Of a stretch of DNA of 55,621 nucleotides, positions 48,478 to 49,997 are shown piece after piece. The translations under genes and the position numbers were made by a program. A model generated the notes under the pieces. That model was not told the DNA's origin, did no database searches, and saw nothing but the letters and a program-made list of their open reading frames with translations. Within the stretch, counting starts at the first letter, position 1. Each line of letters starts with the position of its first letter. This DNA comes from Candidatus Elulimicrobiales bacterium (lineage in GTDB: Bacteria > Patescibacteriota > Minisyncoccia > Phycocordibacterales > UBA5272), in contig JAYFPW010000006.1 in NCBI GenBank assembly GCA_034927475.1, positions 75,197-130,817 of the forward strand. The letters are read 5' to 3'.

Positions 48478-49997
48478 TTTTAGAGTTTGATCCTAGCTCA
48501 GGATGAACGCTGGCGGCGTGGATAAGGCATGCAAGTCGAACGGAACTAATCACATGGAAGCATTTACAAAGTTTGAGTAGTAATACAATGATGGAGTTTA
48601 TGTGAAAGCGTGACAGTTTAGTGGCAAACGAGGTAGTAATATTTAGGAACATACCCAGAAGTCTTGGATAACCGATCGAAAGGTCGACTAATACAAGATG
48701 GTCTCGCGAGAGTAAAGATTTATCGCTTCTGGATTGGCCTGAACAGTATCAGCTAGTTGGTAAGGTAATTGCTTACCAAGGCTATGACGCTTAGGAGGGG
48801 TGAGAGCCTGACCTCCACCGATGGGACTGAGACACGGCCCATACACCTACGGGTGGCTGCAGTCGAGAATCTTCCACAATGGACGAAAGTCTGATGGAGC
48901 GACGCCGCGTGATGGATGAAGAGCTTCGGTTTGTAAACATCTTTTATGAGGGAATAAGTTTATTGAAGGTACCTCATGAATAAGGACCTGCTAAACTCGT
49001 GCCAGCAGCAGCGGTAATACGAGTGGTCCGAGCGTTATCCGGAATTATTGGGCGTAAAGGGTCTGTAGGTTGCTTAATTAGTCTCCCGTTAAATCTTTGG
49101 GCTCAACCCAAAGCCTGCGGGGGAAACGGTTAAGCTAGAATATGCGATAGGTATACGGAACTCATAGTGTAGGGGTGAAATCCGTTGATATTATGGGGAA
49201 CACCAAAAGCGAAAGCAGTATACTGGCGCATTATTGACACTCAAAGACGAAAGCGTGGGTAGCGAATGGGATTAGATACCCCAGTAGTCCACGCCCTAAA
49301 CGTTGCTCTCTCGCTATTAGGAGTATCGACCCTCCTAGTGGCTTAGCTAACGCGGTAAGAGAGCCGCCTGGGAAGTACGAGCGCAAGCTTAAAACTCAAA
49401 GGAATAGACGGGGAGACGCACAAGCAGTGGATTATGTGGTTTAATTCGACGGTAAACGAAGAACCTCACCAGGATTTGAAACCAAGTTGAAAGGTCTAGA
49501 AATAGATCCCTCGCAAGACAATTTGGCAGGTGATGCATGGCCGTCGTCAGTTCGTGGTTTGAGCTGTTCCCTTCAGTGGGGTAACGAACGCAACCCTCAT
49601 CGTATGTTATACGTGTCATACGAGACTGCCCCTCATCGGGGGAGGAAGGCGAGGATGACGCCAGGTCAGCATGTCCCTTTGACATCCTGGGCTACACACA
49701 TAATACAATCGCATTGACAGCGGGTCGCGACGGGGTAACCCTGAGCCAATCCTTAAACAGTGCGCCAGTTCAGATTGAGGTCTGCAACTCGACCTCATGA
49801 AGTAGGAATTGCTAGTAATTGCGGGTCAGCTATACCGCAGTGAATACGTTCTCGTCTCTTGTACTCACTGCCCGTCAACTCAAGGGAGCCGGGGGTACCC
49901 AAAGGCTTTCGCAAGAAGGACTAAGGTAAAATCGGTAACAGGGAGTAAGTCGTAACAAGGCACGGCTAGCGGAAGCTGGTCGTGGATTAATTCAATT
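48478..49997 (+). rRNA. rrs: 16S ribosomal RNA; the ends are inferred by manual alignment to the E. coli model
   Basis: AGAGTTTGATCCTAGCTCAG at 48482, GTGCCAGCAGCAGCGGTAATAC at 48999, ATTAGATACCCCAGTAGTCC at 49271, AACGAACGCAACCC at 49583, GTACTCACTGCCCGTCA at 49861, AAGTCGTAACAAGG at 49947, and helix 45 at 49961-49984. Confidence 0.95.

Follow-up and report, generated by a model that had tools for sequence, protein, structure and literature searches.

Absence of the anti-Shine-Dalgarno core from the 16S rRNA and of Shine-Dalgarno enrichment from the gene starts in a Parcubacteria genome segment

The 16S rRNA gene (rrs) in a 55,621-nucleotide stretch of contig JAYFPW010000006.1 from a Candidatus Elulimicrobiales bacterium (assembly GCA_034927475.1; this whole stretch is called the window) was found to end in a 3' tail without the CCUCC core of the anti-Shine-Dalgarno (anti-SD) sequence, and the protein genes of the window were found to lack enrichment of Shine-Dalgarno (SD) motifs upstream of their start codons. 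Pairing between the SD and the anti-SD is the textbook mode of start selection in bacteria, and few segments of rRNA are as strongly conserved as the anti-SD. With the explanation given below taken as a whole, it is considered highly probable that the ribosome of this organism does not find start codons by mRNA-rRNA pairing. Anti-SD loss here is genuine and lineage-wide, yet it has already been reported for Parcubacteria.

The 16S rRNA gene was delimited over its full length with the Rfam model of bacterial small-subunit (SSU) rRNA, and the alignment of its 3' end was anchored on the universal AAGUCGUAACAAGG (the coordinates of all features are collected in Table 1). Helix 45 is intact, with 10 pairs (2 of them G-U) as read directly from the sequence, and its dimethyl-adenosine loop GGAA is unchanged; the position and the pair count given for this helix by the initial annotation, which had been made by a model from the letters of the window, were both right according to the sequence and the Rfam structure line. 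The last 13 positions of the SSU model read GAUcACCUCCUUu in the consensus and GAUUAAUUCAAUU in the window, where the anti-SD core is gone and all the consensus C residues except one have become U or A. CCTCC, CTCC, CCTC and TCCT were not found by a string search of 49944-50260, and the lack of CCTCC and CTCC up to the terminator, as first described, was thereby borne out.

The limits of the 16S rRNA precursor were determined as well. The leader (34 nucleotides, nt) and a distal strand of the trailer are predicted to form a duplex with 19 contiguous pairs, an intrinsic terminator follows directly, and complementarity between leader and trailer was also seen in relatives, as recurrent reverse-strand BLAST matches. 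Leader-trailer processing stems of this type are common, and the present one puts the end of the transcript past 50198, close ahead of the terminator. CCUCC is absent from the whole precursor, including the trailer between the 16S end and the stem, and since the precursor is bounded by the processing stem and the terminator, a CCUCC hidden by an insertion or carried by a downstream exon is excluded. The gene is unlinked, with neither a 23S rRNA gene nor a tRNA gene next to it and a protein gene after the terminator; no tRNA or 23S rRNA gene was found within the window. The trailer (49998-50198) is unusually long and rich in hairpins, and its conservation is 78-83% in relatives whose 16S identity is 93-95%; when the 200-nt trailer was searched in Rfam with permissive thresholds, nothing but sub-threshold chance matches to terminator-like small RNAs came up.

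The organism belongs to the Parcubacteria (Paceibacteria) branch of the Patescibacteria or Candidate Phyla Radiation (CPR), with UBA5272 and CAZNZP01 as the closest bins and Nomurabacteria-like genomes as the nearest named relatives. The 16S rRNA is 99.0% identical to that of locus L037 and 98.9% identical to that of L081 (UBA5272; both labelled Patescibacteria), the tail and the trailer being identical in both, and 84-88% identical to those of Nomurabacteria/Paceibacterota bins; Nomurabacteria lie within the Parcubacteria group. The window also carries hallmarks of the CPR ribosome, namely uS5 followed by uL15 with no uL30 between them, and enlarged uS10, uS12 and uS19.

For the conservation of the tail, one genome per GTDB species was scanned with CTTGTACTCACTGCCCGTCA, the 16S decoding-centre signature of the window, and at least 119 loci were obtained. 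The labels among the matches listed were mostly Patescibacteria, Parcubacteria and Paceibacterota (Nomura-, Vogel-, Yonath-, Nealson- and Campbellbacteria), the remaining ones being Saccharibacteria, Gammaproteobacteria or generic. Among the same matches, 110 tails were classifiable: 41 were of the window type (GGAUUAAUUC...), 47 were non-canonical in other ways (for example GUGAAACAAUUAAA, GGAUCAUAACAUU and GGAAUAUUUCAAGUGAAA), 7 were degenerate with CUCC or CGCC retained, and 15 were canonical. The tail is lineage-wide, a point that the initial annotation had left to a comparison with related genomes, and GGAUUAAUUC is present in at least 41 Patescibacteria/Parcubacteria species representatives. 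It is kept in nearly all relatives with a 16S identity of about 84% or more (L022 is the exception), and the relatives' sequences diverge directly after ...UGAA(A), past a hairpin predicted between tail and trailer.

An artefact or an incomplete picture, that is, a mis-assembled or mis-delimited 3' end, or another rrs with CCUCC that serves SD-bearing mRNAs, is hardly credible. Metagenome contigs frequently break at rRNA genes, the analysis covers the 55-kb window (with one 16S gene) and flanking loci no longer than 8 kb in relatives, and a CCUCC-bearing RNA would fit the strong SD of an orphan open reading frame (ORF) in two species, which is described below. However, an exact 114-nt match to 49947-50060 was found in the independent Logan assembly L135 (SRR9598598), the same tail was found in another one, L137 (SRR35836907), and both tail and trailer are identical in the two genome bins named above; a processing stem and a terminator of its own bracket the 16S rRNA, and the 16S copies with the window's helix 45, among the matches listed, all have a non-canonical tail. 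The gene order around the ribosomal protein (r-protein) genes was likewise found again in independent Logan assemblies. As to a second rrs, about 90 genes of the window and close relatives are without an SD signal.

SD use was estimated in the window and in the flanking loci of the relatives. Genes were called crudely, in the related loci likewise, as the longest non-overlapping ORFs from the first ATG; an SD core was defined as GGAG, GAGG or AGGA at -20 to -4, and in-gene positions were used as the control. For the 50 window genes of at least 100 amino acids, an SD core was present in 6% (control, 10%), the mean duplex energy with ACCUCCUUA was -0.67 kcal/mol (control, -1.77 kcal/mol), and 4% reached -4.4 kcal/mol. 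When the identical pipeline was applied to 49 kb around the r-protein operons of Escherichia coli K-12, an SD core was recorded in 52% versus 2% of the control, with mean duplex energies of -5.29 and -2.49 kcal/mol, respectively, and 68.5% of the genes reached -4.4 kcal/mol, so the pipeline detects SD use where it is present. In eight close relatives (41 genes), the SD core was found in 5%. An SD signal upstream of starts, which had been named as contrary evidence at the outset, was thus seen neither in the window nor in close relatives. The statement that no gene of the window has an SD motif has one clear exception, the non-conserved ORF at 47810-48145, which has a strong one (rplV at 32451 has a weak AGGA at -15 to -12); the count of 21 r-protein genes and the start contexts AAATATATG and AAAATTATG were correct. 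With CCUCC absent from the pre-16S rRNA and SD motifs not enriched ahead of the start codons, the SD-independent initiation proposed earlier is supported.

The new tail GAUUAAUUCAAUU might itself be a replacement anti-SD whose partner upstream of start codons would be an A/U-rich 'SD' (for example AAUUAAU) that co-evolved with it, for which the strict conservation of GGAUUAAUUC down to about 84% 16S identity and the frequent AAUUAA-like strings in the A/U-rich upstream regions would speak; this is very improbable. The duplexes of the tail with the region from -25 to -1 were no better than shuffled ones (z = +2.06, +0.98 and +0.77 for the 13-, 9- and 21-mer, respectively), their energies equalled those downstream of stop codons, and no positional motif was found at -15 to -7, where A and U each account for about 50%. 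A replacement anti-SD was rejected on the ground that the upstream regions are not enriched in complementarity to the tail at three tail lengths, against both shuffle and post-stop controls.

A different regularity was found at the starts. U stands at -1 in 44 of 53 starts (83%; binomial P = 3e-11 against the local background), A at -4 in 40 (75%) and at -6 in 38 (72%), and G is at most 6% at each position from -11 to -1. A amounts to 66-75% across -6 to -4 and 58-75% across -6 to -3, compared with 40-47% at -13/-12 and a background of 39%. The same context was observed in close relatives (U at -1, 78%; A at -4, 71%; A at -6, 61%), and U at -1 was weaker in more distant ones (about 50%, with crude start calls). 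The mRNA around the starts is predicted to be weakly structured, with a mean minimum free energy of -1.0 to -1.5 kcal/mol in 40-nt windows at -20 to +20 versus about -4 kcal/mol elsewhere. Depletion of AUG around starts, of the kind known from Bacteroidia, was marginal (z about -2.2 in two bins) and was not used as evidence.

At 27228, 35536, 37935, 38785 and 51961 (reverse strand), an extended -10 box (TGnTATAAT or a near variant) ends 6-9 nt upstream of the ATG, a spacing expected of leaderless or near-leaderless transcripts, whereas in other cases the promoter-like box is 13-49 nt away from the start; this suggests that a minority of the genes have leaderless mRNAs. Judged from the sequence statistics, the 30S subunit or the 70S ribosome would load onto an unstructured, G-poor and A/U-rich start region, and the frame would be set by a 'Kozak-like' context of short extent, with A from -6 to -3 and U at -1; U at -1 may pair with A37 of the initiator tRNA and so lengthen the codon-anticodon helix, and some operon-first genes would be transcribed as leaderless or very short-leader mRNAs. 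These start features resemble the determinants described for Flavobacterium and E. coli, where SD-less initiation is tuned by upstream adenines and low structure (PMC6847099), and fit the quadruplet pairing formed by U at -1 with A37 of tRNAfMet (PMC10018350).

The tail itself looks constrained. The hairpin predicted between tail and trailer varies among relatives by paired changes: nine species have UUCCA-AAU-UGGAA, L043 has UUCC-GAA-GGAA and L022 has UCC-AUUC-GGA. An analogous hairpin, CCUCCU-UUC-AGGGAG, is formed by canonical tails with their own trailers. The MAFFT alignment was ungapped and left the hairpin variants out of register, and hence a shuffle test and a listing of the variants were used in place of a covariation count. 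A hairpin of at least 4 bp in this place was predicted for 72% of 75 distinct non-canonical tails versus 44% in the shuffles, none of which (0 of 300) attained the observed value, and for 75% of canonical tails versus 28% of shuffles. Most likely, the conserved tail GGAUUAAUUC and its predicted hairpin would be needed for the processing of the 16S 3' end and not for mRNA binding; this reading is the most economical because ablation of the anti-SD impairs rRNA processing in Flavobacterium johnsoniae independently of bS21.

Pure neutral decay, in which a functionless tail has drifted under A+T pressure and its conservation and hairpin reflect shared ancestry, disputes the functional reading of the tail alone and not that the anti-SD was lost, and is somewhat unlikely. 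It would account for the change of all consensus C residues but one into U or A and for the many different tails across sublineages, and short hairpins come easily in A/U-rich sequence, as the shuffles show, with kinship inflating the statistics. It accords poorly with the near-invariance of GGAUUAAUUC at 84% identity and above next to a trailer that diverges right after the hairpin, with the pairing of the stem changes (UUCA/UGAA, UUCCA/UGGAA and UUCC/GGAA), with the same tail-trailer hairpin in canonical tails (CCUCCU...AGGGAG), and with the impaired rRNA processing after anti-SD ablation in F. johnsoniae (PMC13000453).

A stronger, joint reading is put forward tentatively, as an unlikely one: the replacement tail would be a selected element, kept across a family-level Paceibacteria clade, that has taken over the non-mRNA roles of the anti-SD (definition of the 16S 3' end, processing and platform occupancy), and starts would be chosen by the U(-1)-A37 pair together with the A-rich stretch at -6 to -3. 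If so, the clade would be a natural, large-scale case of bacteria dispensing with the anti-SD altogether, and a lone conserved orphan with GGAGG would be a hint that something other than the ribosome reads this motif.

Some points weigh against the account given so far. Gene starts in the related loci were called crudely, shared ancestry inflates the figures for both tail conservation and hairpin enrichment, and the strong GGAGG of the orphan ORF at 47810-48145, next to rrs, is kept in two species, a retention that is left unexplained if the ribosome has no anti-SD. The GGAGG of this ORF (48150-48154, AAAGGAGG) lies 4 nt before the ATG, and the ORF has its own -35/-10 promoter-like boxes and its own terminator. 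It was called in 15 independent contigs; no match was found in Pfam, PHROGs or NCBIfam, and a homolog search returned only the orphan itself. By tblastn against 125 loci, one ortholog was detected, in L037 (about 4459-4797, reverse strand), which is syntenic and has 48-51% amino acid identity, the flanking genes there being about 76% identical in DNA. The ortholog also has AGGAGGAGuaaaaAUG, with AGGAGGAG (AGGAGG) 5 nt before its ATG. This SD may be due to chance or to recent transfer, some further RNA may carry CCUCC, or the complementary CCUCCUUU that lies upstream of rrs may have a function.

The order in which the two partners were lost was approached through the 15 relatives with canonical tails (GGAUCACCUCCUUUCU; 74 genes). 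Their SD core frequency is 12% versus 9.5% in the control, without enrichment, and their mean duplex energy is -2.15 versus -2.64 kcal/mol. As relatives that keep CCUCC thus lack SD enrichment too, SD use was seemingly lost first and the anti-SD decayed later. The joint loss of both partners claimed by the initial annotation therefore stands in so far as both are missing in the window, but the losses look sequential, and its premise that SD-poor lineages generally keep the anti-SD has known exceptions, Parcubacteria included (PMC9297842, PMC7782861).

The diversity among the derived tails suggests that there were several decays, independent or progressive, and C to U or A changes are expected under A+T pressure once the constraint is relaxed. 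A history of the following kind may be proposed: the wider clade would have given up SD use; other constraints on the tail, namely binding of Era to GAUCACCUCC and the autoregulation of rpsU through bS21, would then have eased; and the C-rich core would have decayed under A+T pressure, differently in different sublineages. Era recognises GAUCA and CCUCC, and era is lost in most CPR (PMC10582724); bS21 is often absent in Parcubacteria, whose bS1 has 3-4 domains (PMC9297842). In Flavobacterium, the SD of the bS21 gene is the main reason for the anti-SD requirement, and F. johnsoniae tolerates anti-SD ablation after rewiring of rpsU, with rRNA processing impaired independently of bS21 (PMC13000453).

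Table 1. Features of the window, with positions counted from its first nucleotide
Feature	Position	Strand	Details
tuf, example of an SD-less start region	1456..1488	+	...uuaauuaauuaaaauaaaauuauuAUG
recG start, candidate leaderless mRNA	35515..35538	+	TGTTATAAT ends 7 nt before ATG
Orphan ORF	47810..48145	-	111 amino acids, acidic; AAAGGAGGaaaaATG; sole ORF in the window with a strong SD
Putative rrs promoter	48279..48307	+	TTGCAT, 17-nt spacer, TGcTAATAT; by eye, not confirmed
Pre-16S processing stem, 5' leader strand	48441..48474	+	abuts mature 5' end; duplexfold with trailer, -35.3 kcal/mol
16S rRNA gene, full length	48475..49997	+	Rfam SSU_rRNA_bacteria RF00177, model positions 1-1533, 1336.8 bits
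Universal AAGUCGUAACAAGG, anchor of the 3' alignment	49947..49960	+	Rfam alignment, sequence
Helix 45	49961..49984	+	CACGGCUAGC / GGAA loop / GCUGGUCGUG; sequence, Rfam structure line
3' tail	49985..49997	+	GAUUAAUUCAAUU, replaces GAUCACCUCCUUU; Rfam alignment
Predicted tail/trailer hairpin	49985..50005	+	outer stem GAUU/AAUC, inner UUCA-AUU-UGAA; RNAfold
Processing stem, 3' trailer strand	50155..50198	+	about 157 nt beyond the modelled 16S 3' end
Intrinsic terminator of the rrs transcription unit	50199..50234	+	hairpin

Several further observations were made on the rrs locus. Besides the putative promoter of Table 1, a weaker candidate of its own (48339-48367) was returned by the promoter scan. 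When L037 was compared with 43343-50621 of the window, the 16S rRNA and the trailer were 97-100% identical and the adjoining coding DNA about 76%, with a sharp fall in identity just upstream of rrs; either rRNA conservation greatly exceeds protein conservation in this group, or recombination has recently taken place at the rrs locus. In the decoding centre, the stretch at 49863-49882 is GUACUCACUGCCCGUCA, with U instead of C at 16S position 1400 and with A1396 changed to U, which is compensated by U921A (window position 49405; GAAUAGACGG) so that the helix 28 pair is kept. The positions 921, 1396 and 1400 are in what we take, from primer positions, to be E. coli numbering. C1400 is universal and unpaired, and touches the P-site anticodon. 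The decoding-centre signature is common to at least 119 Patescibacteria species representatives, with the anti-SD present or absent. In the 16S rRNA of L038, L061, L078 and L087, an insertion lies right after AAGUCGU, inside the helix 44/45 junction, and many 16S alignments of relatives are interrupted at about position 1158 of the window's 16S rRNA, which points to intervening sequences in the 16S genes of the clade.

TGA is essentially unused as a codon in the window, where no credible gene ends in it or contains it in frame. The ORFs of at least 100 amino acids end in TAA (40) or TAG (9), and among those of at least 150 amino acids there is one TGA end. TGA ends were recorded in 0 of 32 ORFs of the close relatives (L037, L081, L101, L121, L088, L070, L110 and L077), in 21 of 179 ORFs of more distant relatives with the window-type tail, and in 43 of 105 ORFs of relatives with the canonical tail. 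On this sequence evidence, the low TGA use suggests a loss of RF2 or a codon-capture intermediate in the genus; nothing relevant on unused UGA or RF2 loss in Parcubacteria was found in the literature. The S10/spc r-protein cluster is split into two parts (2729-9209 and 32011-35457), an order confirmed by independent assemblies: one part has rplB, then rpsL, then rpsN-rpsH-rplF-rplR-rpsE-rplO-secY, and the rpsS-rplV-rpsC-rplP-rpsQ-rplN-rplX-rplE block lies 26 kb away. There is no uL30 gene between rpsE and rplO, and no uL29 gene between rplP and rpsQ (42-nt gap). A protein of 925 amino acids (18972-21749), encoded between the fusA region and efp, has weak matches to TraG/TrwB-type coupling proteins (DUF8128), and xfp-ackA, secDF, DsbB and pilT/pilC-like T2SSE/T2SSF genes are also encoded in the window.

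The clade can be regarded as a natural counterpart of the Flavobacterium anti-SD ablation experiments and as a test bed for other roles of the 16S tail, such as rRNA processing and platform interactions. In practice, gene finders that rely on the SD and annotation of 16S ends by CCUCC will misbehave on these genomes. In the work of Saito from 2020 (eLife), E. coli ribosomes with an altered anti-SD reportedly still choose start sites correctly without mRNA-rRNA pairing. Such a result makes a natural SD-free system plausible, although that system is engineered and short-term and operates in an SD-using genome. Mitochondrial mRNAs are leaderless or have short leaders, and the organelle uses dedicated factors. 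Mitochondria resemble the window in an SSU rRNA without an anti-SD and in reduced ribosomes (PMC10582724), but in the window the GAU(U)A stretch and helix 45 have kept a bacterial form, and the candidates for leaderless use are a minority of its genes.

Loss of the anti-SD is frequent in tiny genomes and is associated with loss of r-proteins (Nikolaeva 2021, PMC7782861). The window shares with these symbionts (PMC7782861 and, through it, Lim 2012 and Amin 2018) the loss of CCUCCU in a reduced, A+T-rich genome; their losses are scattered over insect endosymbionts and Mollicutes, whereas a large environmental clade with one conserved tail is concerned here. The SD-independent initiation of Bacteroidia (PMC6847099, PMC7797042, PMC13000453) is similar in the lack of an SD and in A-rich, G-poor and weakly structured starts. 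Bacteroidia, however, keep the anti-SD, which is sequestered by bS21, bS18 and bS6 and is used for the autoregulation of rpsU, whereas it is gone in the window; with CCUCC absent, the window is not a member of the Bacteroidia-type system, though initiation may work similarly. The adenine positions seem to differ as well: enrichment is seen at -3, -6, -12 and -13 in Bacteroidia, and in the window it lies mainly at -6 to -3, A at -13/-12 being 40-47% against a background of 39%, with a far stronger U at -1.

The closest known system is the Parcubacteria subgroup of Tsurumaki 2022 (RNA 28:1041), in which CCTCCT was found in only 48% of Parcubacteria, and the lineages without it overlap the group lacking uL1, SD helices probably not being formed there (PMC9297842). 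The window belongs to the same clade and agrees with this subgroup in a complete SSU rRNA without CCUCCU and in the CPR ribosome traits (uL30; uS10, uS12 and uS19). As to uL1, the rplK-rplA region lies outside the window, past which the contigs that were found do not reach. That study dealt with the absence of the motif only, without SD use in mRNAs, the replacement tail, the conservation of the tail or the start context. The value of the present analysis accordingly lies in confirmation and in some testable details, what is added being a replacement tail that is conserved and has a compensated hairpin, together with a single conserved orphan gene that bears an SD.

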